Shown piece after piece: positions 204 to 45,951 of a stretch of 57,543 bases of DNA. The notes beneath the pieces are model-generated. The model saw nothing but the letters and a program-made list of their open reading frames with translations, did no database searches and was not told the origin of the DNA. Each line of letters begins with the position of its first letter. The stretch's first letter is position 1. The translations under genes and the position numbers were made by a program. The stretch comes from Candidatus Nomurabacteria bacterium GW2011_GWE2_34_25. Lineage in GTDB: Bacteria > Patescibacteriota > Minisyncoccia > Phycocordibacterales > UBA9973. The stretch covers positions 1 through 57,543 of the forward strand of contig LBPS01000001.1 of assembly GCA_000990325.1 (NCBI GenBank), read 5' to 3'.

Positions 204-281
204 TTATGCACATCAACTATTGTTTTGTTTAGTACTTTAATGATACAATAACAGAGTATTTATTATTATTCATTTAATTTT

Positions 282-1799
282 ATGACAACACCAGAACTTA
301 TACAATTTGTAAAAAATGAAATTACAGCTGGAGTAACTAAAGATATTATTACTAACAAGATGAAGGCACAGGGTTGGAGTGACTTTGATGTTATTGATGT
401 GTTCAATATAATTGAACAAAAAACACCTATGTTTAATCAAAAAGCTCAAGAACCTAAAGTATTATTTGTTCAATCAAAAAAGAAATCCTTTAAAGTTTTG
501 TTATTTATAATTATATTGTTACTTATCGTAGGTGGAGGATTTGTGGTATATGCATCAGGATATTTTCTATCTCCCTCTAGATTGTTCTCACAAGTCATCA
601 ATTCTTCAAGAGATACCAACGGAGTTAATATTGAGTTACAATTTTTAGTGGATGCTTCCTCATTGAAATCATCAGAAAACACACTTAAAAATATTTTTGG
701 GACAGATTTTAAAACCCTTAATTTTGACATGAAAGGTTCTTTTGATTTAAGTGATAAAGAGAATCTCAAATCAGATACAACTTTTTCTCTTAAATCTGGC
801 GACATAGAAGCGGTTATGAATTCTCGGGCTATTAATGGCTCGCTATATATAAATCTGATAAAAATTTCCAATATGGACTTTGTTTCTTTAAAGCCATTTG
901 AAAATAAATGGATTGTTTTTCCTCAGAAATCTAATCTAGGTCAGTTGAGTACTAATCCACTAATGGCTTCATCGGGCTTTGGATCAAAGTTGGTAAATGA
1001 TTTAACTGATGAACAGAAGAAAAATATTTATAATATTACAGATAAGGCTCAATTTATAAAAATTACCAAGAAGCACTTGCCAGAAGTTATAGAAGGATCC
1101 CTCTCTTATCATCTTGATTTTGATTTAGATCGTGAAGGAATAACATCTTATTTAAAAGAGGTTATTAATTATTTAAAAAGTATTGATTCCCATAACGAAT
1201 TAGCATCATTGAATGAATCTGATTATATAGATACTATGAAAGGATTAGAGAATTTTCATGGTGAGATGTGGGTTGGAATTTTAGATAATCTTCCTCATAA
1301 AATAATTGTAAGTGGAGATATCATAAATAAAGAAAAGCTAGAAGATGGGTCCGTGAAGCTATCAATGACTATGATTTATAGTAATTGGGATAAAGTTATG
1401 GATATAGAAGTTCCTAGTGGAAGTGTATCTTTCGAGGAATTGATGTCTTCATTGTTTGGAAGCAAGGCGATAATAAACAACACAGGAATTGAATCAAGAC
1501 CAGAAGATCCAGATGATCTTAGTAAAAAAAATATCATGAGTAATATAGCATTACAAGCCGACACATTTTATTTAAGCAATGATAATTCGTACAAAGGGTT
1601 TTGTCGAAATAAAACAAATGGAGCTTATCCTTTTGCTATAACATTATCTGCAAATAGTGTTTACAAATGCAATGACGAAGTAGAAGTATGGGCATCTGGA
1701 GTTCAGTTAAGTACTAAAGATTACTGGTGCGCAGACGCTACAGGTTTCGCAGGAGTTTCGAATTCTTTGCCCAAGGGGACATCTTGTCCGATCCAATAA
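282..1799 (+). CDS. Membrane-anchored hypothetical protein (N-terminal ~45-aa domain, one TM, large extracytoplasmic part with Cys-containing C-terminus)
   Basis: 505-aa ORF. TM helix FKVLLFIIILLLIVGGGFVVYA. The N-terminus resembles that of ORF 6321. The C-terminal ~80 aa contain paired Cys. No family recognised. Confidence 0.7.
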   Translation: MTTPELIQFVKNEITAGVTKDIITNKMKAQGWSDFDVIDVFNIIEQKTPMFNQKAQEPKVLFVQSKKKSFKVLLFIIILLLIVGGGFVVYASGYFLSPSRLFSQVINSSRDTNGVNIELQFLVDASSLKSSENTLKNIFGTDFKTLNFDMKGSFDLSDKENLKSDTTFSLKSGDIEAVMNSRAINGSLYINLIKISNMDFVSLKPFENKWIVFPQKSNLGQLSTNPLMASSGFGSKLVNDLTDEQKKNIYNITDKAQFIKITKKHLPEVIEGSLSYHLDFDLDREGITSYLKEVINYLKSIDSHNELASLNESDYIDTMKGLENFHGEMWVGILDNLPHKIIVSGDIINKEKLEDGSVKLSMTMIYSNWDKVMDIEVPSGSVSFEELMSSLFGSKAIINNTGIESRPEDPDDLSKKNIMSNIALQADTFYLSNDNSYKGFCRNKTNGAYPFAITLSANSVYKCNDEVEVWASGVQLSTKDYWCADATGFAGVSNSLPKGTSCPIQ

Positions 1800-3025: not shown

Positions 3026-5497
3026 ATGAGTATATTAGAAAACATATTAGGAAATGAGAACGATAGGCAAGTAAGGAAATGGAGGCCTATAGTTGATAAG
3101 ATAAACGCATTAGAGCCTACAATGAAAGAATTGTCAGATGGGGATTTTGTTGCTAAAACTCAACAATTAAAAGATAAACTATCTCAAGGAAAAACCTTAG
3201 ATGACATTTTGCCAGAGGCTTTTGCTGCTGTGAGAGAAGCTTCTGTCCGAACATTTAGTCTCAGGCCTTATGATGTTCAAATGATCGGAGGCATTGCTCT
3301 TCACAATGGAGGTATTGCTGAAATGCGTACAGGTGAAGGTAAGACTCTTATGGCGACTCTACCCGCATATTTAAACTCTCTAACTGAACAAGGAGTTCAC
3401 ATTGTTACGGTGAACGATTATCTTTCTCGTCGTGATGCTGTCTGGATGGGTCCTCTTTTTGCAACTCTCGGCATTAGTTGTGCAGTTGTAAATTCTGAGA
3501 ATAAATCTTATATATATGACCCCACACATCAAGACAAAGAAAGTGAAGTAGGAGGAGAGATTAGTTCCTTTAAGGTCCAGTATGAATTTCTTAGACCTTG
3601 TTCTCGTAGAGATGCCTATGCTTGTGATATAACATATGGAACCAATAACGAATTCGGCTTTGATTTCTTGCGTGATAATCTAGCCAACAGTATTGGAGAT
3701 GTAGTTCAAAGGGGGCACCACTTTGCTATTGTTGACGAAGTCGACTCTATTTTGATAGATGAGTCTCGTACCCCACTCATTATTTCTTCAGCAGCAGAAG
3801 ATTCTGAAGATTTATATTATACATTTGCAGACATTGCTAAAAATTTAAAGAAAGATGAGGATTATGGTGTGGACGAGAAGCTCAAAGCAATTTCACTAAC
3901 AGATCAAGGTATTACAAAGGCTGAAGATTTACTTGGAATTAAAGATATATATACCCAGAAGGGTATTAAGTACGTTCATCATTTAGAGACAGCAGTTAAG
4001 GCCAGAGCATTATATGAGAATAATAAAGACTATGTTGTCAAAGATGGCGAGGTTATTATTGTCGATGCTTTCACTGGACGTATGCAGCCTGGAAGACGCT
4101 GGAGTGAGGGTCTTCATCAGGCCATTGAAGCTAAAGAAGGAGTAAAGATTGAGAAGGAGACTAGGGCTGTAGCTTCTATTACCTTTCAAAATTATTTCCG
4201 TTTTTATAAGAAGCTTTCAGGAATGACAGGGACAGCTGAAACTTCAAAGGAAGAATTTTTTAAAGTTTATGGACTAAATGTTATTGTTGTGCCAACTCAC
4301 AAAAATATCAATAGAATAGATCTAAACGATTTAATTTATCAAACAGAAAAAAGTAAGTTATTAGCTGTCTCTGGGAAAGTTAAAGAGCTCCACCTGAAAG
4401 GTCAGCCAGTCCTTATCGGTACTGTTTCAATAGAGAAAAATGAACTTCTTTCAGCCTATCTAACACAAGCTGGTGTCCCTCATACAGTCTTAAATGCCAA
4501 GAACCATGAACGTGAAGGAGAAATAATTGCCAATGCTGGACGGCTGGGGGCGGTCACCGTTGCGACCAACATGGCTGGACGCGGAGTGGATATCAAGCTA
4601 GGAGGCGTACCTTTTAAATATGAAGCATATGAAGAAGTGAAAGCTTTAGGAGGGCTTTTCGTCTTAGGTACGGAGCGTCATGAAGCTCGTCGCATAGATA
4701 ACCAGCTCCGAGGTCGTTCCGGACGTCAGGGCGATCCAGGAGAAACTCAATTTTATGTATCACTTGAAGATGATCTAATGCGTATTTTCGGATCCGACAG
4801 ATTGAAGAATATGATGGGCAAGCTCGGTATTCCCGAAGATCAACCAGTAGAGAATCGTTTTATATCAAATGCTATCGAAAGTGCTCAGGCCAAGATAGAA
4901 GGCTTTCACTTTGATTCTCGTAAACATACACTTGAATACGACAATGTCATGAATCACCAGAGAAATGTTATTTATAGTAGAAGGAGAGCCATGCTAGCTG
5001 GGGATTATGAAAAAATACAAGAATTCTTAGATGAGCTTGTAATTCTATACCCAAAGCTAATTGATATTATAAAAGAAAAGCGTCTTGCAGTAGGGGATGC
5101 TACTTTCTTTGAAACAGTTAGACGCATTATTCTATATATCACAGACAATCTATGGATAGAGCATCTAGAAACTATGGAGTACACTCGTTCTTCTGTGAAT
5201 TTACGTGCCTATGGTCAGAGAGAACCTTTGATAGAATACAAGAAAGAAGGACTCAGGCTTTTCAAAGAAATGGAAGTAATTTTTAAAGAACAGGTATCAT
5301 CTCTAATATCTACAATGAATGTGGGAGTTGAGAGATCTGACGAACAAGTTGTAGAAGAAAAGCAATCCTTAATCTTGAGTTCTAGTGAGTCAGGTGAAGG
5401 AACAACAAAAAGAGAAAGTCCTAAAATCGGCCGCAACGACCTCTGTCCTTGTGGCTCTGGCAAGAAGTATAAAGTCTGCCATGGAAAAGATAAATAA
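3026..5497 (+). CDS. secA: Preprotein translocase ATPase SecA
   Basis: 823 aa. Motor motifs MRTGEGKTL and DEVDSILIDE. C-terminal zinc-binding tail CPCGSGKKYKVCHG. Confidence 0.97.
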   Translation: MSILENILGNENDRQVRKWRPIVDKINALEPTMKELSDGDFVAKTQQLKDKLSQGKTLDDILPEAFAAVREASVRTFSLRPYDVQMIGGIALHNGGIAEMRTGEGKTLMATLPAYLNSLTEQGVHIVTVNDYLSRRDAVWMGPLFATLGISCAVVNSENKSYIYDPTHQDKESEVGGEISSFKVQYEFLRPCSRRDAYACDITYGTNNEFGFDFLRDNLANSIGDVVQRGHHFAIVDEVDSILIDESRTPLIISSAAEDSEDLYYTFADIAKNLKKDEDYGVDEKLKAISLTDQGITKAEDLLGIKDIYTQKGIKYVHHLETAVKARALYENNKDYVVKDGEVIIVDAFTGRMQPGRRWSEGLHQAIEAKEGVKIEKETRAVASITFQNYFRFYKKLSGMTGTAETSKEEFFKVYGLNVIVVPTHKNINRIDLNDLIYQTEKSKLLAVSGKVKELHLKGQPVLIGTVSIEKNELLSAYLTQAGVPHTVLNAKNHEREGEIIANAGRLGAVTVATNMAGRGVDIKLGGVPFKYEAYEEVKALGGLFVLGTERHEARRIDNQLRGRSGRQGDPGETQFYVSLEDDLMRIFGSDRLKNMMGKLGIPEDQPVENRFISNAIESAQAKIEGFHFDSRKHTLEYDNVMNHQRNVIYSRRRAMLAGDYEKIQEFLDELVILYPKLIDIIKEKRLAVGDATFFETVRRIILYITDNLWIEHLETMEYTRSSVNLRAYGQREPLIEYKKEGLRLFKEMEVIFKEQVSSLISTMNVGVERSDEQVVEEKQSLILSSSESGEGTTKRESPKIGRNDLCPCGSGKKYKVCHGKDK

Positions 5498-5509
5498 TAA
5501 CTAAAATTC

Positions 5510-5530
5510 CCCAAAGGCCCGGCCTTTGGG
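5510..5530. repeat. Palindrome family A, copy 1 (between secA and HUH gene 1)
   Basis: cccaaaggc ccg gcctttggg: 9-bp GC-rich stem in AT-rich DNA. The same sequence occurs at 5829 and 6251. Confidence 0.9.
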
Positions 5531-5559
5531 AAATTTTGATAGGGTGATATAATATAAAA

Positions 5560-6300
5560 ATGAGTATTCGTAAAACAACACTTGTTGAAGGTGAATATTA
5601 TCATGTCTACAACAGGGGTAATGGTAAACAGAAAATATTTTTAGATGATGAAGACTATGAACGTTTTATAAAACTTTTGTATATTTGTAATTCAGAAAAG
5701 AAAATAAATTTTCGAGAAGAAATAGTAAATAAAAATATTGATGCTTTTGAGTTTAAAAGAGGTCAACAGATTGTATCTATGGGTGCATGGGTTCTAATGC
5801 CTAATCATTTTCATGTCTACATTACAATCCCCAAAGGCCCGGCCTTTGGGGAAAATAAGAAAGAAGAAAAAAATAGTTTAAATACAATTTCATTATTTAT
5901 AAACAAAGTATGTACTTCCTATTCAATGTATTTTAATAGAAAATACAAGAGAACCGGATCTTTGTTTGAAGGGAGATTTAAATCTGTTCACATAAAGAAT
6001 GATAATCAGGCAAAGTATTTATTTTCTTATATACACTTAAATCCTATTAAATTAATTCAATCAGACTGGAAAGATATTGGAATTAAAAATAAAAAAGAAG
6101 CATTAGATTTTCTTGATAATTATAAATGGGGGAGTTATTTAGATTATTTATATATAGAACGCAAAGAGAGTAAAATATTAAACAGAGAGAATTTTTTGAA
6201 TTATTTTGATACGAAAGAGTTATTTCAAAAGGAAATACTAGAATGGATTTCCCCAAAGGCCCGGCCTTTGGGAGATTTAATGGATGATAAAATATTTTAA
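5560..6300 (+). CDS. HUH/Y1 transposase-like protein (RAYT / IS200-like, COG1943-type), paralog 1
   Basis: HUH motif MPNHFHVY and Tyr motif YIHLNPIKL. Paralogous to ORFs 12479 and 45232. The coding sequence contains two family-A palindromes, read as PKGPAFG and PKARPLG. Confidence 0.8.
   Translation: MSIRKTTLVEGEYYHVYNRGNGKQKIFLDDEDYERFIKLLYICNSEKKINFREEIVNKNIDAFEFKRGQQIVSMGAWVLMPNHFHVYITIPKGPAFGENKKEEKNSLNTISLFINKVCTSYSMYFNRKYKRTGSLFEGRFKSVHIKNDNQAKYLFSYIHLNPIKLIQSDWKDIGIKNKKEALDFLDNYKWGSYLDYLYIERKESKILNRENFLNYFDTKELFQKEILEWISPKARPLGDLMDDKIF
5829..5851. repeat. Palindrome family A, copy 2, inside the coding sequence just after the HUH motif
   Basis: ccccaaaggcccggcctttgggg, in frame (ITIPKGPAFGENKK). 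The corresponding segment is absent from paralog 2. Confidence 0.9.
6251..6272. repeat. Palindrome family A, copy 3, forming the C-terminal tail of HUH gene 1
   Basis: ccccaaaggcccggcctttggg. Paralog 2 ends at the equivalent of EWL/EWI, whereas this ORF reads on through the palindrome. Confidence 0.9.
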
Positions 6301-6320
6301 AGTGATATAATAAAAATATT

Positions 6321-7439
6321 ATGATAAATCAACAATTGTTAGATTTTATTAAACAACAATTATTAAAGGGGGTAGATAAAGAGACTATTACAAAAGAGTT
6401 GTTAGGGAGTGGGTGGCTTGAGCAAGATATAAATGAAGGATTTAATGCAATTAATACTCAAATGCAAGCTCCACAAAAGACACCAATGCCTTCTGTTGTT
6501 TCCATAAATACAAAAGAAAAATTAATTATCGAAAAAAAATCCTTCGTCCAGAAAATTAATTTATTTAATATATTTATGGCGATTGTTATGCTTTCTTTTA
6601 TTATTACCTCAAGTTATATAATTTCTGAAGTTGTATTCAATTTAAATAATAGTTTTGCGTACTCACTGCATGATCTTTATAGAATAGTACACTCTTTTAA
6701 TGGTATATTTTTTACTATAGGTTTAATATGTTTTATTTTGTATTTAATTATTTTTATTAGATTCAAATTTAAAAAAGATAGTATTAATATCATTAAAGCA
6801 AGGAAAAATTTTATTTGGTCAATAGTCTTGTTAATTATGTTAGTTCTTGAATATTTGATTCCGACCCTCTTTCTAAATTACGCTTATAAACCAGTTATAT
6901 ATCTATATCCCACTCAAACAAAAAATGTAAAAGTTGAACTAGATTATAAGGGTAAATTAATTGCTGATTATCCAGCGTATGATTATTCACAGAAAGGCTG
7001 GGCAGTAACCGCGTATCCAGATGGTAAAATAATTAATGGAGATGGAAAGGAATACAGTTATCTATTTTGGGAGGGGGAATCTTCTACTCCAATAAATTAT
7101 GACTTATCAACTGGTTTTGTTGTAAAAGGAGAAGATACGGTATCTTTCCTACAAGAAACCTTATCAAAAATAGGATTAACTCCAAAGGAATACAATGAGT
7201 TTATTGTCTACTGGTATCCGAAGATGAAGGACAATAAGTACAACCTAATTCACTTTGCTGATAAACAATACACCGACACAGCCCCTCTTACCATTACTCC
7301 TGGGCCAGACTCAATGTTGAGAGTGTTTATGGTATTTAAACAATTAAACAGGGGAATAGAAGTAAAACCTCAAGAAATTAAATCATTTAATCGTACAGGA
7401 TTCTCGGTAATAGAGTGGGGAGGTACAGAATTAAAATAA
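6321..7439 (+). CDS. Multi-pass membrane protein with C-terminal soluble domain, hypothetical
   Basis: 372-aa ORF. The N-terminal 45 aa resemble ORF 282. Several hydrophobic helices at 80-200 aa. No family recognised. Confidence 0.7.
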   Translation: MINQQLLDFIKQQLLKGVDKETITKELLGSGWLEQDINEGFNAINTQMQAPQKTPMPSVVSINTKEKLIIEKKSFVQKINLFNIFMAIVMLSFIITSSYIISEVVFNLNNSFAYSLHDLYRIVHSFNGIFFTIGLICFILYLIIFIRFKFKKDSINIIKARKNFIWSIVLLIMLVLEYLIPTLFLNYAYKPVIYLYPTQTKNVKVELDYKGKLIADYPAYDYSQKGWAVTAYPDGKIINGDGKEYSYLFWEGESSTPINYDLSTGFVVKGEDTVSFLQETLSKIGLTPKEYNEFIVYWYPKMKDNKYNLIHFADKQYTDTAPLTITPGPDSMLRVFMVFKQLNRGIEVKPQEIKSFNRTGFSVIEWGGTELK

Positions 7440-11735: not shown

Positions 11736-12431
11736 TTGTTCTATATGGCAAATAAAGACACCATAAAATACATAATTGGTATAGATGAGGTTGGTAGAGG
11801 TCCTTTGGCGGGGCCCGTGGCGGTCTGTGCATTTCTTATAAAAGATAGAAAATTTCTTGATGAGCAGTTTGCCATAGGCCTTGCCTATGGCAAACTGCCG
11901 AAGCTTAAAGATTCTAAAAAGCTTTCTAAGAAGCAAAGGGAAGAGTGGTTTGAATATTTAAAAGTCGCAAAAGCCGAAGGCTTTTGCGACTACTCTGTAT
12001 CTTTTGTATCACCTGAAAATATCGATAAATTTGGAATTGCGAAATGTATACAGAAAGCGTTGAATGAATCTTTGCAGAAAGTAACTTCGCAAGATTCTTC
12101 AAATTCTTCGCGCTTTACCCTAAAGGGCTCCGACGCGGCTCAGAATTTTAAGAACCTTGCTTCGTTCGGTGTTTATCTAGACGGTGGACTTCATGCACCA
12201 GCCCAATACGTTAATCAAGAGACAATCATAAGAGGGGACGAACTTCATCCTGTTATTTCACTGGCGTCCATTGTGGCGAAAGTTACTCGTGACGCTGTGA
12301 TGACCAAATATGCAAAAGAATATCCCGAGTATGGTTTCGAGCGTCACGCAGGCTACGGTACCAAAGCTCACTACGAAGCCATCAAAACTCACGGACAGAC
12401 CCCCATCCACCGTAAAACCTTCATCCATTAA
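11736..12431 (+). CDS. rnhB: Ribonuclease HII carrying three in-frame palindromic insertions
   Basis: Motifs DEVGRGPLAGPV, DSKKLS, SIVAKVTRD, GYGT and HRKTF. 35 aa separate the GRGP and DSKKL motifs, longer than I recall for E. coli RnhB. Confidence 0.9.
   Translation: MFYMANKDTIKYIIGIDEVGRGPLAGPVAVCAFLIKDRKFLDEQFAIGLAYGKLPKLKDSKKLSKKQREEWFEYLKVAKAEGFCDYSVSFVSPENIDKFGIAKCIQKALNESLQKVTSQDSSNSSRFTLKGSDAAQNFKNLASFGVYLDGGLHAPAQYVNQETIIRGDELHPVISLASIVAKVTRDAVMTKYAKEYPEYGFERHAGYGTKAHYEAIKTHGQTPIHRKTFIH
11864..11898. repeat. Perfect 16-bp-stem palindrome inside rnhB
   Basis: gcagtttgccataggc ctt gcctatggcaaactgc, translated in frame as QFAIGLAYGKL. Confidence 0.9.
11963..11991. repeat. Perfect 13-bp-stem palindrome inside rnhB
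   Basis: agtcgcaaaagcc gaa ggcttttgcgact, translated as VAKAEGFCD. Confidence 0.9.
12089..12160. repeat. ~72-nt composite palindromic element inside rnhB (28-nt core 12111-12138)
   Basis: The core cgctttaccctaaagggctccgacgcgg is identical to 41858-41885. It is flanked by the imperfect inverted repeat gcaagattcttcaaattct / agaattttaagaaccttgc. The length of 72 nt preserves the frame. Confidence 0.8.
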
Positions 12432-12459
12432 ATGCACTAGGTCTTGCCTAGTGCATTTA
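12429..12459. repeat. Palindrome family B, copy 1 (loop tcttg); contains the rnhB stop codon
   Basis: taaatgcactagg tcttg cctagtgcattta: perfect 13-bp stem. Confidence 0.9.
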
Positions 12460-12478
12460 ATGAATATATAATAAATAT

Positions 12479-13141
12479 ATGTCTATTAGAAAAGTAAATT
12501 TTGTAGGTGGTGAATATTACCATATTTACAATCGTGGAAATAGTAAACAGAAAATTTTTCACGATAATCAAGATTATCGTCGCTTTGTAGACTTATTATA
12601 TTTGTTAAATAATAGTCAAAATCTTAATGTATTTCATTTAAATAGAAGTAGTACTTTTGACGTGTATGAAACTAAAATTGATAATAAATTAGTTTCAATT
12701 GGTGCATATTGTCTAATGCCCAATCATTTTCATCTTTTAGCAACGGAAAAAACAGAAGGAGGTATAAGTAAATTTATGCAAAAACTAACAACTGCATATG
12801 TGATGTATTACAATAAAAAACAAGAAAGAACAGGGGGTCTTTTCGAGGGTAAATTTAAGGCGGAACATGCGGGGGATGACAGATATTTAAAGTATTTATA
12901 TTCTTATGTACATCTTAACCCTATAAAACTTATAGATAAAAAATGGAAAGAAGAGGGGGTAAAAGATAGAAATGAAGCTTTAAAATATTTGGGTGAATAT
13001 AAGTATTCTAGTTACCTTGATTATATAGGAGAAAATAGAATTCAAAATAAAATTTTAGATATGGATAGTTTCCCTAAATATTTTTCAACAGACAAAGCTT
13101 TTAAAAGTGAAATTTTTGAGTGGTTAAATTATAATATCTAA
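12479..13141 (+). CDS. HUH/Y1 transposase-like protein (RAYT / IS200-like), paralog 2
   Basis: HUH motif MPNHFHLL and Tyr motif YVHLNPIKL. Flanked by family-B palindromes in inverted orientation. Confidence 0.85.
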   Translation: MSIRKVNFVGGEYYHIYNRGNSKQKIFHDNQDYRRFVDLLYLLNNSQNLNVFHLNRSSTFDVYETKIDNKLVSIGAYCLMPNHFHLLATEKTEGGISKFMQKLTTAYVMYYNKKQERTGGLFEGKFKAEHAGDDRYLKYLYSYVHLNPIKLIDKKWKEEGVKDRNEALKYLGEYKYSSYLDYIGENRIQNKILDMDSFPKYFSTDKAFKSEIFEWLNYNI

Positions 13142-13171
13142 AATGCACTAGGCAAGACCTAGTGCATTTTA
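13139..13171. repeat. Palindrome family B, copy 2 (loop caaga, inverted relative to copy 1); contains the stop codon of HUH gene 2
   Basis: taaaatgcactagg caaga cctagtgcatttta. Confidence 0.9.
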
Positions 13172-13203: not shown

Positions 13204-13779
13204 ATGGAAACAGAATATGAAGCTACTTATATAAATATTGATAAAGACGAAATAAGAGAAAGACTAAAAAATTCTGGAGCTGTTTTAGAAAGATCTGAAT
13301 TTTTACAGAAAAGAATTCCTTTCGATTTATCATACGAGAAACAAGCCTTACATACTTTTGCAAGAGTTAGAGACGAGGGAGATAAAATAACAATGAGTAT
13401 AAAATCTATAAATGGTGATAAAATTCATAATCAGAATGAGTTGTGTCTTACTGTAGATAATTTTGATCATGCCGTTAAATTTTTGGAGTTATTGGGGTGT
13501 AATCCTAAGTCATATCAAGAGAGTAAGCGTGAGCTATGGAGATTAGATGGTGTTGAAATAACAATAGATACGTGGCCATTTTTAGAACCATTTGTTGAGG
13601 TTGAGGGTAGGTCAGAAGAAGAAGTTAAAAAAGTTTCTAAAAAGATTGGTTTTGATTATTCTGAGGCATTATTTTGTGGAACTGATAAGATATATGAAAT
13701 GAAATACGGAATTTCTTGTGTAAAAGTTAATAACATTCCAAAAATAATTTTTGATATGGAAAATCCATTTATAAAATAA
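13204..13779 (+). CDS. CYTH-domain protein (class IV adenylate cyclase / triphosphate tunnel metalloenzyme-like)
   Basis: 191 aa. N-terminal acidic strand TEYEATYI, RVRDEGDKITMSIKS, and VEITIDTWPFLEPFVEVEG typical of CyaB/CYTH. Confidence 0.6.
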   Translation: METEYEATYINIDKDEIRERLKNSGAVLERSEFLQKRIPFDLSYEKQALHTFARVRDEGDKITMSIKSINGDKIHNQNELCLTVDNFDHAVKFLELLGCNPKSYQESKRELWRLDGVEITIDTWPFLEPFVEVEGRSEEEVKKVSKKIGFDYSEALFCGTDKIYEMKYGISCVKVNNIPKIIFDMENPFIK

Positions 13780-13809
13780 AATGCACTAGGCAAGACCTAG
13801 TGCATTTTA
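13777..13809. repeat. Palindrome family B, copy 3; contains the stop codon of the CYTH gene and abuts the pepN 3' end
   Basis: taaaatgcactagg caaga cctagtgcatttta, identical to copy 2. Confidence 0.9.
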
Positions 13810-13813
13810 TTTT

Positions 13814-18228: not shown

Positions 18229-18300
18229 TCCGTGGTAGCTCAGCGGTAGAGCGATCGCCTGTTAAGCGATTGGTCGTAGGTTCGATCCCTACCCACGGAG
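18229..18300 (+). tRNA. tRNA-Asn (anticodon GTT)
   Basis: Full cloverleaf drawn by hand: acceptor TCCGTGG/CCACGGA, D stem GCTC/GAGC, anticodon stem ATCGC/GCGAT with loop CTGTTAA, T stem GTAGG/CCTAC with loop TTCGATC. No encoded CCA. Confidence 0.92.
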
Positions 18301-19968
18301 CAAGATAGGACAAACGTCCCCAAAAACCTCATTTCGTTCTGAAGTATCAATGATATTTTCAGGTTCGAACTGAGGATTTTTTGTTCTTGCTTCATTTAGT
18401 CCATCAATGAGTTTCTGTATTGGTTCTACGTTGATAATATTAAGTATTTTCTCATTCCATACTAGGTTCGAACCAAGTTTGGTAAACATAGCTCTTTTGT
18501 CTTTTGTTAAACCATTTTTAATGATTTCAGATATTTCTGTTGTTAAATCAACCATATCATTAGCAATTTTATACCAATCACGATTTTTATTTTTAGGATT
18601 ATTTAATTCTAAAAGTTCTTTGTCTATTCCATCTATATCAGCTTTATAATCTGAAGCATTAATTTGACCATCAGCGAGCATTTGACGATACCTTCTTTTA
18701 CGTTCTTCTAATTGTTCTATCAATGGAGTTCTACTTGCAGATTCAATTAAATCGGTCTGAATCTCTTTGTCTTTAATTTCACTTATGTTACGTTTACACC
18801 ATTCAGCTAGAGATTGTGACATAACTAAGTTTTTCTCGGTGTATGAACGAAAATATGTCGTTATTTTTCCTTCCTCAATATACTTAACAGATTCTCTCTT
18901 TTTTCTCTTAGGTACATTGTAATAGTAAGAATAATTAAGATATTTAGGATTCTTGATTTTATTTATTGCTATTCCACATTTAGGACAATTAGTTTTGTTT
19001 TGACTAGCAAATTTATATTTACATTGGCATATTACTTGTAGCTTAATATCTGCTCCTATAAACTCACCAAATGGAGATTTTATAAAACCAGAATAAGTAG
19101 ATTCGTGGGTCTGTGTTTTAGGTAGTGTTCTACTGGATAACATTCTTAGTATTTTAAAATGGTCATCCTCAGTTATTATTCTAGGTAAGTCTTTTGAGAG
19201 TTCATATTTTGTATTTTGTTGATAAAATACTCCAGCATATATTGAGTCTTTAAGAATTGTATAAACTCTTGAGTAAGTAATTAAATTACCACCACTTCTT
19301 TTGTGTTTAGGTGTAGTTAGTTTAGCTGAATTTATAGCCCAGTCATAAATTTGTGTTCCAGAATAATTTCCTGACAGGAACATATTAAGCATCTCTTTAA
19401 TTATTGGTAGTCTTATTTCATCCACCATCCATTTGCGATTTCCTTTTTCTTCTGTTTTATCATTTAAGAAACCAAGAGTAGCAAGTCCGTGAGGATACCC
19501 CATAGATGCTTTTTTGGTTTGCCCACGTTTAACATTTACTGATAGTTCTTTTACAAATTGTTTTCCTTGGCTGAATTCAACTGACAAAACAATAACATTA
19601 TCCCAAGGATAAAATACTTTATCGTGTGTAATTATTGCCTTAATTTTTCCTGAACTTAGAAGGTCAATTATCTGTCCTCCTTCCGTCATATTTCTAGCTA
19701 GTCTGTCTGCTTTCCAGCAAACAATTGCATCTATCTCTCCCTTATCTATCATCTTCATCATTCTAGAAAACTCTGGTCTTACTCCTTCTGCTTTGGCTGA
19801 TTTTGATTCTTTAAATACTCCCACAAATGGTGAGAGTTTATAAAACTCTGCTATTCTTTTTGCTTCATCTGTCTGAGAATCAATAGAAAGCATCTGTCTA
19901 TCTTCATCTTCAGTAGATTTTCGATTATAATTTCCGATTTTTAATTTTGTAAAATCTATTGGGTTCAT
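18289..19968 (-). CDS. Large serine recombinase (integrase)
   Basis: 559 aa. N-terminal resolvase catalytic region YNRKSTEDEDRQMLSIDSQ. Recombinase domain. Zn-ribbon CQCKY..CPKCG. C-terminal coiled coil. Its last 12 nt overlap the 3' end of tRNA-Asn on the opposite strand. Confidence 0.88.
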   Translation of the reverse strand: MNPIDFTKLKIGNYNRKSTEDEDRQMLSIDSQTDEAKRIAEFYKLSPFVGVFKESKSAKAEGVRPEFSRMMKMIDKGEIDAIVCWKADRLARNMTEGGQIIDLLSSGKIKAIITHDKVFYPWDNVIVLSVEFSQGKQFVKELSVNVKRGQTKKASMGYPHGLATLGFLNDKTEEKGNRKWMVDEIRLPIIKEMLNMFLSGNYSGTQIYDWAINSAKLTTPKHKRSGGNLITYSRVYTILKDSIYAGVFYQQNTKYELSKDLPRIITEDDHFKILRMLSSRTLPKTQTHESTYSGFIKSPFGEFIGADIKLQVICQCKYKFASQNKTNCPKCGIAINKIKNPKYLNYSYYYNVPKRKKRESVKYIEEGKITTYFRSYTEKNLVMSQSLAEWCKRNISEIKDKEIQTDLIESASRTPLIEQLEERKRRYRQMLADGQINASDYKADIDGIDKELLELNNPKNKNRDWYKIANDMVDLTTEISEIIKNGLTKDKRAMFTKLGSNLVWNEKILNIINVEPIQKLIDGLNEARTKNPQFEPENIIDTSERNEVFGDVCPILLRG

Positions 19969-21962: not shown

Positions 21963-22174
21963 CAAAAAGCCTGAATATTGTTATAGTATACTTACAAATA
22001 AATAGTAGACCTAACCTTTAGAGATTCTCTCTAGAGTATGGTCAAAACCCCGTGAAGAATAAAGAACTCTTAGTCAGAGTTTTGCCTTCACGGGTCATAC
22101 TTGGAAACGAGTATGGGTGGCTTAAAAACCATCAATCTGGCTAGGAGCTTTTTGCGTTTTAGCCGACAAAATAT

Positions 22175-41763: not shown

Positions 41764-41836
41764 ATGTGGCTTATTTTACCACACAAATTATCTTGACGGA
41801 ATATGATTTTGTGTGGTGTGATGATATTTTTGTTTC

Positions 41837-41909
41837 GTAGTTTATTAAATTTTTTCCCGCTTTACCCTAAAGGGCTCCGACGCGGATAAAAATTTTAAAA
41901 AACTACTAC
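41837..41909. repeat. Second copy of the ~72-nt composite palindromic element (core 41858-41885), intergenic
   Basis: The core cgctttaccctaaagggctccgacgcgg is identical to 12111-12138. It is flanked by AT-rich imperfect inverted arms gtagtttattaaatttttt / aaaaattttaaaaaactac. Confidence 0.8.
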
Positions 41910-41963
41910 ACAAAAATATTAGAGTTATTTCACGAACAACTTACATTATGGTATTATAAAAAT

Positions 41964-45174: not shown

Positions 45175-45203
45175 CCCAGATAGTGGCCTTGCCACTATCT
45201 GGG
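45175..45203. repeat. Palindrome family C, copy 1 (loop ctt), upstream of HUH gene 3
   Basis: cccagatagtggc ctt gccactatctggg. Confidence 0.9.
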
Positions 45204-45231: not shown

Positions 45232-45951
45232 ATGAGTACAAGAAGACAACCTTTAATAACAGGGCAGATGTATCATATTTATAACCGTGGGGTAGACAAG
45301 CGGGATATTTTTTCAGATAAAAATGATATTTATCGCTTTTTAGAAAGTATTAAAGAATTTAATAGGGAAGATAAAATAATAAGTCTTGCAAATATTCGTA
45401 AATTTAATCAGATAGAGGCCTTGCCTCTATCTGAGAGAGAAAATAAGAAGCCATTAGTAGAAATTATAGGATATTGTCTTAATCCTAATCATTTTCATTT
45501 TATATTGAGACAAGTTTCAGACAATGGTATTTCAAAATTCATGCATAAGTTACAAGGTGGATATTCTTATTATTTTAATGTAAAAAATACCCGATCAGGT
45601 TCTTTATTTCAGGGTAAATTTAAATCACAAATAATTGTTAATGAAAATTATTTTAATAAATTAATAGGTTATGTTAATAAAAATTATTTAATTCATAATA
45701 TTCCAGAAAATAAAAACCAGTTAGTTTTCTCTGGAGATTTCGAATATGAAAATAAGAAATTTGATATTATATCTAAAAAAGAAGGGGAAAGAATTTTAGA
45801 AATCTTTGGAGGTGTAAATAAGTTTAAAAAACATTGCGATGAAATAGTTTCAATAGTTAGGGAGGAAAGAGGGAAGAAATCCTTGCTTGAAGATGAGGAT
45901 TTGAATGTAATTATAGAAAGTCTTCCAGATAGTGGCAAGGCCACTATCTGA
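45232..45951 (+). CDS. HUH/Y1 transposase-like protein (RAYT / IS200-like), paralog 3
   Basis: LNPNHFHFIL (HUH). YVNKNYLIH lies at the Tyr-motif position. Shares the N-terminal YHIYNRG block with paralogs 1 and 2. Confidence 0.75.
   Translation: MSTRRQPLITGQMYHIYNRGVDKRDIFSDKNDIYRFLESIKEFNREDKIISLANIRKFNQIEALPLSERENKKPLVEIIGYCLNPNHFHFILRQVSDNGISKFMHKLQGGYSYYFNVKNTRSGSLFQGKFKSQIIVNENYFNKLIGYVNKNYLIHNIPENKNQLVFSGDFEYENKKFDIISKKEGERILEIFGGVNKFKKHCDEIVSIVREERGKKSLLEDEDLNVIIESLPDSGKATI
45408..45434. repeat. Palindrome family C, copy 2, inside the coding sequence, with compensatory stem changes
   Basis: tcagatagaggc ctt gcctctatctga. T-to-A in the 5' arm is matched by A-to-T in the 3' arm relative to copies 1 and 3. 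Read in frame as NQIEALPLSE. Confidence 0.85.
45926..45950. repeat. Palindrome family C, copy 3 (loop aag, inverted relative to copy 1), forming the C-terminus and stop of HUH gene 3
   Basis: cagatagtggc aag gccactatctg, followed by a that completes the TGA stop. Confidence 0.9.

Follow-up and report, generated by a model that had tools for sequence, protein, structure and literature searches.

RAYT proteins (REP-associated tyrosine transposases), together with the repetitive extragenic palindromes (REPs) that accompany them, are the best example of a domesticated bacterial transposase, and the way in which the palindromes are recognised and spread is still poorly understood. It is established that each RAYT has its own REP family, that gene and palindromes form REPtrons, and that REPs and RAYTs co-evolve (PMC6006769, PMC8266576). 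The biochemistry of TnpA(REP) on its cognate perfect-palindrome REPs is also known (PMC8266576). REPs occur inside genes, often those for replication or repair, and REPtrons are found in species without dispersed REPs (Di Nocera et al. 2013, PMC3733652). For TnpAY1 subclass 2.4, which is Bertels RAYT group 4, in-frame REPs have been reported inside the tnpAREP genes themselves (Quentin, Siguier, Chandler & Fichant 2018, PMC6006769). The core of the present finding, a palindrome inside a transposase-like gene, has this precedent; literature searches returned no description of a RAYT/REP system in Patescibacteria. In this study, a stretch of 57,543 nucleotides from Candidatus Nomurabacteria bacterium GW2011_GWE2_34_25 (contig LBPS01000001.1; hereafter the window, 32% GC) was analysed. 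The host is an ultra-small groundwater bacterium with a Paceibacteria-like genome of the Patescibacteria. The subject is a HUH/Y1 transposase-like gene, termed gene 1, and a short perfect hairpin that is present before, inside and at the end of its open reading frame (ORF). The reading favoured here, with reasonable rather than high confidence, is that gene 1 would be an intact single-copy gene of the RAYT/TnpA(REP) type and would form a minimal REPtron with its cognate hairpin at three stations. The hairpins may be the single-stranded DNA (ssDNA) sites of the enzyme, whose activity would keep them identical, with the promoter copy serving autoregulation and the internal copy being tolerated.

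Gene 1 and the closest described systems

The gene lies directly downstream of secA (3026-5497). Its features, numbered from the first nucleotide of the window, are as follows.

5503-5537, no strand assigned: 5' hairpin copy between the secA stop codon and gene 1, with a perfect core at 5510-5530 and the loop CCG; -11.8 kcal/mol as ssDNA
5526-5553, plus strand: promoter-like site TTGGGA-16 nt-TG-A-TATAAT, 10 of 12 matches, TG before the -10 box
5560-6300, plus strand: gene 1, coding for an intact predicted class-2 TnpAY1 / RAYT-like HUH-Y1 protein of 246 aa
5806-5814, plus strand: HUH motif, H83-F-H85 within PNHFH, alignment columns invariant
5827-5883, plus strand: insert loop, residues 90-108, comprising the hairpin peptide and a K/E-rich linker; a gap in paralogs 2 and 3
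5828-5852, no strand assigned: internal hairpin copy with an 11-bp stem, translated I-P-K-G-P-A-F-G-E; -12.8 kcal/mol as ssDNA
6028-6045, plus strand: catalytic Tyr motif Y157-I-H-L-N-P, assigned by motif conservation
6252-6272, no strand assigned: 3' hairpin copy, read P232-K-A-R-P-L-G238 in a frame that differs from that of the internal copy, within a low-confidence C-terminal tail

The three copies share the exact 21-mer CCCAAAGGCCCGGCCTTTGGG, that is CCCAAAGGC-CCG-GCCTTTGGG, at 5510-5530, 5830-5850 and 6252-6272. All three show the loop as CCG on one strand, and folding as ssDNA gave -9.7 to -12.8 kcal/mol. The 21-mer occurs exactly three times in the window and would not be expected there by chance, 100 dinucleotide-preserving shuffles having yielded no match. 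The initial annotation had located the first copy correctly at 5510 and the other two one base too early (5829 and 6251). It had described the palindrome as private to gene 1, and all three copies in the window do lie at this gene. Its statement that two copies are translated also holds: the core peptide of the internal copy, P91-K-G-P-A-F-G97, follows directly 3' of the HUH motif (N82-H-F-H85), and the terminal copy is read in another frame. The reading frame stays open, as had been proposed, and runs on for 8 codons past the terminal hairpin peptide. Aligned with paralog 2 (12479-13141), the internal copy is an insertion of ~14 aa between the HUH and Tyr motifs, again as described.

A search of GTDB species representatives, among which the source genome is not included, returned only two single copies of the 21-mer, both unrelated. 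The first is in a metagenome-assembled genome of the Saccharimonadales, a different lineage of Patescibacteria (DASSFC010000037.1, L001, 3837-3857), where it is read PKGPAFG in a glycosyltransferase-family-2-like (GT2) gene (…AAPKGPAFGRNQGA…); the match is probably fortuitous and due to a conserved GT2 motif, an intragenic hairpin insertion being the less likely alternative. The second lies in a low-complexity region of a member of the Clostridia.

An assembly artefact or a decaying pseudogene, either of which the initial annotation had named as fatal to its own proposal, has a negligible probability. Pfam gave no match to gene 1, and beyond that only the oddity of a palindrome in an ORF speaks for such an explanation. 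The artefact is excluded by five independent assemblies, which show 0 mismatches over 5440-6340, and by a sixth, shorter assembly with the same three 21-mers (sources: NCBI GCA_003446925.1, ENA, Logan). Decay is contradicted by the intact ORF, by the retained catalytic motifs and by a confident structural model.

The identity of the protein was assessed from profiles, motifs and predicted structure. NCBIfam NF047646 (REP_Tyr_transpos) was the top match for all three RAYT-like proteins of the window. Pfam PF01797 (Y1_Tnp) matched paralog 2 with 39.4 bits and paralog 3 with 32.7 bits (cutoff 23); for gene 1 no match was obtained at E<=0.01, because its domain is interrupted by the insert. Among PDB entries, a profile search returned only E. 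coli TnpA(REP) (4ER8). The AlphaFold (AF2) model of gene 1, built on 29 sequences, had a predicted local distance difference test score (pLDDT) of 82.8 and a predicted template modelling score (pTM) of 0.82. Foldseek placed 4er8_A, TnpArep bound to a REP hairpin, first (E 2.3e-6, TMt 0.63), followed by the TnpA proteins of IS608, ISDra2 and IS200 (E about 4e-4). The model includes a HUH strand (83-89), a helix (109-128), a helix carrying Y157 (148-165) and a helical tail (166-230). The site of the internal copy corresponds to the beta3-alphaC position. Structure prediction, which had been suggested as a check, placed the insert in a low-confidence loop: residues 90-108 have no secondary structure, pLDDT is <50 at 96-105, and block means over 91-110 are 53 and 57. 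The C-terminal tail (residues 234-246) is likewise at pLDDT <50.

The motif set comprises NHFH, LF[EQ]G.FK and Y[IV]HLNP, with KWSSY in the tail of the consensus (KWGSY in gene 1). The HUH motif is invariant in alignments of 29 and 28 sequences and present in 80/80 of the related loci introduced below, nearly all of which also have YIHLNP (Y-x3-N-P). The Y-x3-N-P form is that of class 2 TnpAY1, and Y-x3-Q is that of IS200 (PMC6006769). The family is large, with >7,800 matches for gene 1 and about 2,600 for gene 3; the named matches belong to Candidatus Paceibacterota or Nomurabacteria and are called "RayT" or "transposase". Catalytic motifs and modelled fold agree with the earlier description of gene 1 as HUH/Y1 transposase-like, and the protein is predicted to be a class-2 TnpAY1/RAYT relative with the Y1-transposase fold, closest to E. 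coli TnpA(REP).

Gene 1 and its relatives resemble subclass 2.1 (Bertels group 1; TIRYTs, PMC3733652) in motifs (NH[YF]H, FQ-type, Y[IV]HLNP), in length (about 238 aa), in a C-terminal tail domain with an SS-type motif (here KWSSY in most relatives) and in the presence of about two divergent copies per genome. However, subclass 2.1 has been published as being without nearby REP-like hairpins, whereas here hairpins lie at the promoter, at the 3' side of the gene and, within some clades, also in the ORF itself. Terminal inverted repeats (GGGGWSAS) border the TIRYTs; the hairpins of the present genes are perfect. With subclass 2.4 the genes share palindromes within the own gene, the loop of subclass 2.4 having been modelled as a peripheral extension (PMC6006769), and low-copy, divergent genes. 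Subclass 2.4 is defined by NH[IFV]H / WQ / YIxNNP and about 194 aa, in contrast to NHFH / F[EQ]G / Y[IV]HLNP, about 230 aa (217-254 aa) and a helical C-terminal domain here. Also unlike subclass 2.4, the present hairpins have no GT[AG]G foot and no "double foot", appear low-copy and local, and belong to a different host phylum, Patescibacteria.

The best structural match is E. coli TnpA(REP)/RayT with its REPs and bacterial interspersed mosaic elements (REP/BIME; 4ER8; PMC3479197, PMC8266576). There, too, a single-copy gene is flanked by cognate palindromes, protein and REP co-evolve, and perfect-palindrome REPs are recognised through loop and stem. Sequence identity is only about 12%, however, and E. 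coli REPs differ in having GTAG and a bulge, hundreds of dispersed copies, no internal copy and no described promoter role. The present case differs in that it concerns a Patescibacteria clade that has subclass-2.1-type motifs and carries hairpins, lacks the GT[AG]G foot and shows an apparently low and local copy number. Fixed stations, three-frame use, concerted change, promoter overlap, and a further subfamily whose intragenic station lies elsewhere are added to what was known.

Hairpin stations and their change across relatives

A set of 80 metagenomic relatives (49-69% aa identity) and the three window paralogs gave 83 loci; a wider span of 49-76% aa identity applies to the loci examined overall, and individual relatives are labelled L below. 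Genes and flanks were scanned in 80-nt steps, and a hairpin was counted at a score of >=9. Hairpins were found in 80% of loci at -80..-1, in 51% (42/83) at +240..319 and in 84% at +640..719, with a background of 0-6% at almost every other step and 16-17% in the two steps just outside the flanking stations. The stations lie at about -35 nt, at about +280 nt just after the HUH motif, and at the ORF end; the second subfamily, that of gene 3, likewise has hairpins at stations. All 80 relatives have intact ORFs (80/80; 217-254 aa), nearly all with both catalytic motifs. In protein alignments, relatives contain, at the same spot as in gene 1, 7-aa stretches like translated palindromes (among them PKGLSFG, PEGLAFG and HQGKTLG), and C-termini such as SPKESPLG occur. 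Every protein without an internal hairpin has a HUH-to-Tyr spacing of exactly 57 aa; where a hairpin is present, the spacing is 59-71 aa in nearly all. The hairpin-less proteins form one block on a rough neighbour-joining tree.

The copies of a locus resemble one another far more than they resemble copies elsewhere: of 140 hairpin pairs taken from a single locus, 77% have the same apical 7-nt arm, versus 1.8% of 17,065 between-locus pairs, and 37 distinct stems were counted among 54 loci. In L003, which is syntenic for secA, all three copies share one compensated change from A:T to G:C relative to the window (CAAAGGC..GCCTTTG vs CGAAGGC..GCCTTCG). L089, which is the closest relative (75% aa identity), carries CCCAAAGGA-CTT/CTT/AAG, with GGA-CTT-TCC in all three copies. 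In L091, also syntenic for secA (76%), the stem is that of the window, and the two visible copies both have a flipped loop. Several loci have internal copies that have diverged from the flanking ones through compensated changes and are still perfect palindromes (L007, L017, L040, L074 and gene 3), which argues that palindromy itself is maintained, beyond identity between copies.

All three frames (0, 1 and 2) are used in reading the internal hairpin, whose distance from the HUH motif is 20-41 nt; frame and offset are clade-specific. The stop codon of relatives is located before, inside or after the 3' hairpin. The earlier claim that the terminal copy replaced the native stop of gene 1 is roughly right. 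At loci whose HUH-to-Y spacing is not 57 aa, mostly carriers of an internal copy, 57% of the flanking hairpins contain no stop codon in any of the three frames, versus 27% in the clade without an internal copy. The reading in three frames and the low-confidence loop of the model indicate that the palindrome is what is conserved, and that the peptide is a passenger.

The initial annotation had suggested that the element seems to have been targeted by its cognate hairpin, which would amount to a particular, recent event at this gene. Such a one-off insertion is favoured by the 100% identity of the three copies over 21 nt and by the lack of the insert in paralog 2. But the internal station is filled in 42 of the 83 loci, with clade-specific frames; the same three stations are occupied in most of the loci; and the closest relatives have their internal copy at the same codon position, with their own stem. 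In addition, copies change in concert between relatives, and the subfamily of gene 3 behaves alike. A recent insertion is thus very unlikely, although the insertion relative to paralog 2 stands. Occupation of the same stations in most loci, together with concerted change, indicates that the hairpin trio is an old, maintained family trait, as judged from these sequence comparisons.

Away from the genes, no copies were found in the 57.5-kb window, each hairpin being confined to the neighbourhood of its own gene. The flanks of the other loci (158 kb) contained about five extra copies, within about 1.3 kb. Logos of 126 hairpins showed no conserved guide tetranucleotide outside the stem; the copies of gene 1 are preceded by TTC/ATC. 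Tandem inverted doublets of the private hairpin, REPIN-like, were observed beside the gene in L012 (+715..+762), L039 (-109..-55 and +696..+757), L020, L030 and L073.

Paralogs, gene neighbourhoods and mobility

Repeat and hairpin scans revealed that the window holds three such genes, each with its own private palindrome. Two are paralogs of gene 1, with 34-49% identity to it.

12479-13141, plus strand: paralog 2, 220 aa, no hairpin inside the ORF
45232-45951, plus strand: paralog 3 (gene 3), 239 aa, with its own hairpin trio

The hairpin of paralog 2, AAATGCACTAGG-TCTTG/CAAGA-CCTAGTGCATTT, is located at 12426-12462 (before the gene), 13139-13171 (at the stop codon) and 13773-13813. This third copy follows a CYTH-domain gene (13204-13779), lies between convergent genes and has A/T-tract feet, like a bidirectional terminator; here a private hairpin has spread locally past the gene to which it belongs.

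The hairpin of gene 3, CAGATAGTGGC-CTT/AAG, is found at 45175-45203 (5') and 45926-45950 (ORF end). Its internal copy (45408-45434) is the compensated variant CAGATAGAGGC, read QIEALPLSE. This copy lies 5' of the HUH motif, so the internal site differs from that of gene 1 (before versus after HUH). The Tyr motif of gene 3 is YVNKNY, not Y-x3-NP. In its relatives L093, L094 and L096 (72-80% aa identity) the neighbours are retained, namely the gene for an S1-domain protein on the upstream side and that for a Lactamase_B_3 protein on the downstream side; this gene order indicates vertical inheritance. They carry trios of their own: CAGATAGCGGC-AAG x3, CAGATAGGGG-CTCAA/TTGAG and CAGATAGCGC-TTTAG/CTAAA/TTTAG.

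These observations bear on the possibility that hairpin, gene and hairpin together (about 760 bp) make up an autonomous insertion sequence of the IS200 kind, with the 5' and 3' hairpins as left and right ends and the internal copy as a nested end. Size and layout are indeed IS200-like. IS200/IS605 TnpA proteins have the HUH-Y1 fold, with which the model of gene 1 agrees (IS200/IS608), subterminal hairpins border a unit of about 0.7 kb on either side, and the mechanism acts on ssDNA hairpins. Furthermore, the three hairpin copies of gene 1 are all on the same strand, and most of the 80 loci are in different gene neighbourhoods, with secA upstream in only 4. However, IS200 elements are multi-copy and near-identical, with Y-x3-Q, imperfect hairpins on one strand and guide tetranucleotides, whereas no near-identical copies exist here, the window paralogs being divergent and having their own stems. 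The Tyr motif is Y-x3-NP, of class 2 (PMC6006769), flanking copies with CTT-type loops are mostly inverted relative to each other, and no tnpB is present. Synteny is kept as well, with secA for gene 1 and with the S1 and Lactamase_B_3 proteins for gene 3. The insertion sequence explanation is therefore unlikely. Varied synteny had been considered as a sign of mobility and was rejected, since the closest relatives of gene 1 share secA and those of gene 3 keep their neighbours. The mixed contexts most likely reflect many paralogous lineages, not recent transposition.

A further parallel is provided by Rickettsia palindromic elements (RPEs) and intragenic REPs (PMC3733652), which are in-frame palindromes in permissive loops of functional genes. 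Their hosts are often replication and repair genes, and the parallel in the window is RNase HII. Unlike RPEs, which are 100-150 bp long and have no known cognate enzyme, the present units of 21-35 nt are found mainly in the enzyme's own gene. The RNase HII gene (11736-12428), just upstream of paralog 2, contains GC-rich perfect hairpins at 11864-11898 and 11963-11991: GCAGTTTGCCATAGGC-CTT-GCCTATGGCAAACTGC, read as EQFAIGLAYGKLP, and AGTCGCAAAAGCC-GAA-GGCTTTTGCGACT. In the alignment to a solved RNase HII (5y9p), the two hairpins coincide with gaps, and they are therefore in-frame insertions within a housekeeping gene. None of the window's three RAYT-like genes has a stem that matches them. A palindromic element of about 95 nt, resembling RPEs or miniature inverted-repeat transposable elements, occupies the intergenic region 41824-41919 (ssDNA -19.4 kcal/mol, z -5.1; GC-rich core CGCTTTACCCTAAAGGGCTCCGACGCGG). 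About 66 nt of its core also occur in frame in RNase HII (12092-12157), where about 25 residues are extra relative to homologues.

Rfam and tRNA scans gave no match at the hairpins. Elsewhere in the window, they identified a LOOT RNA (22008-22133, 80.9 bits), a bacterial RNase P class A (2127-2442) and one tRNA-Asn (18229-18301).

Promoter overlap and possible roles of the hairpins

The -35 hexamer of the promoter-like site of gene 1 is the 3' arm of the 5' hairpin, and the -10 box ends 6 nt 5' of the ATG. In 62/82 loci the ATG is preceded by a TATAAT-like hexamer that begins at -12 or -13. Neither a leader nor a Shine-Dalgarno sequence fits into the remaining space, and gene 1 and the 82 related loci are probably transcribed as leaderless mRNA. 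Among 5' hairpins with a CTT or TCTTG loop (n=29), 59% match TATAAT at >=5/6 positions exactly 17 nt after the loop-derived TTGxxx hexamer, against 17% or less at other spacings. Internal and 3' copies showed no such -10 spacing signal. A promoter role would explain why the 5' copy is almost always in the CTT orientation. An antisense promoter with its -35 element in the internal or 3' copies was also considered, and no -10 enrichment was found at any spacing; one good-looking case at gene 2 was dropped as anecdotal.

The promoter overlap also fits a different explanation, namely that the hairpins serve above all in transcription or as RNA elements: as terminator of the preceding gene, as -35 region of gene 1, as attenuator or RNase site within the gene, and as terminator of gene 1 itself. 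Their identity would then be kept by gene conversion between neighbouring repeats, with the enzyme not acting on them. The 5' copy of gene 1 is terminator-like on either strand, the 3' copy lies at the stop codon, and many 5' and 3' copies across the loci have A-tract/T-tract feet like bidirectional terminators. REPs in general are considered RNA elements downstream of ORFs (PMC3733652). But unrelated terminators have no reason to share a stem with an intragenic site, as most within-locus pairs do, or to change together with it. Loop flips (CCG/CGG, CTT/AAG) alter the loop in RNA, whereas in DNA they represent the same hairpin on the other strand. The association is also specific to the HUH-Y1 family, as seen from three paralogs in one window, each with its own stem. 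A purely transcriptional or RNA role is thus rather improbable.

In the favoured reading of a minimal REPtron, the hairpins would be ssDNA binding and cleavage sites of the encoded enzyme. The copies would be kept identical by its cut-and-rejoin or copying activity, or by short-tract gene conversion. Binding of the enzyme at the promoter hairpin may lead to autoregulation. The internal copy would persist because it is stop-free in any frame and lies in a permissive loop. Several observations weigh against this interpretation. The REP_Tyr_transpos scores of the three proteins (48.2, 40.2 and 34.2 bits) are below the equivalog cutoff of 80. No dispersed high-copy hairpin family was seen in the 57.5-kb window and the locus flanks, and the GT[AG]G tetranucleotide 5' of the palindrome is absent from the loop-anchored logos of the 126 hairpins. 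Loop orientation is mixed for the CCG/CGG type, which fits poorly with a recognition that is strictly strand-specific. Gene conversion alone, without enzyme activity, could also keep the copies identical.

A more far-reaching and speculative proposal is that the trio is a functional, self-referential control circuit and not tolerated selfish DNA. The enzyme would bind its private hairpin in ssDNA, for example at a passing replication fork, shut off the leaderless transcript at the promoter copy, nick or stall its own gene at the intragenic copy, and rewrite all three copies, so that each paralog keeps a private protein-hairpin "code". Such a circuit is doubtful on present evidence. If it existed, the thousands of loci with co-varying stems would be a natural specificity map for HUH-Y1 enzymes, and would point to a domesticated role of RAYT-like genes in the reduced genomes of Patescibacteria.

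In sum, the clade offers a very simple version of the RAYT/REP system, in which a single gene is accompanied by a short perfect hairpin in two or three copies. It extends the hairpin association to a family reported to be without REPs, and to Patescibacteria. Its thousands of natural variants, whose stems have diverged along with their proteins, constitute a covariation data set for hairpin specificity. The promoter overlap gives a testable model of autoregulation, and the internal station suggests that a palindrome can persist inside an ORF over deep time, readable in any frame.

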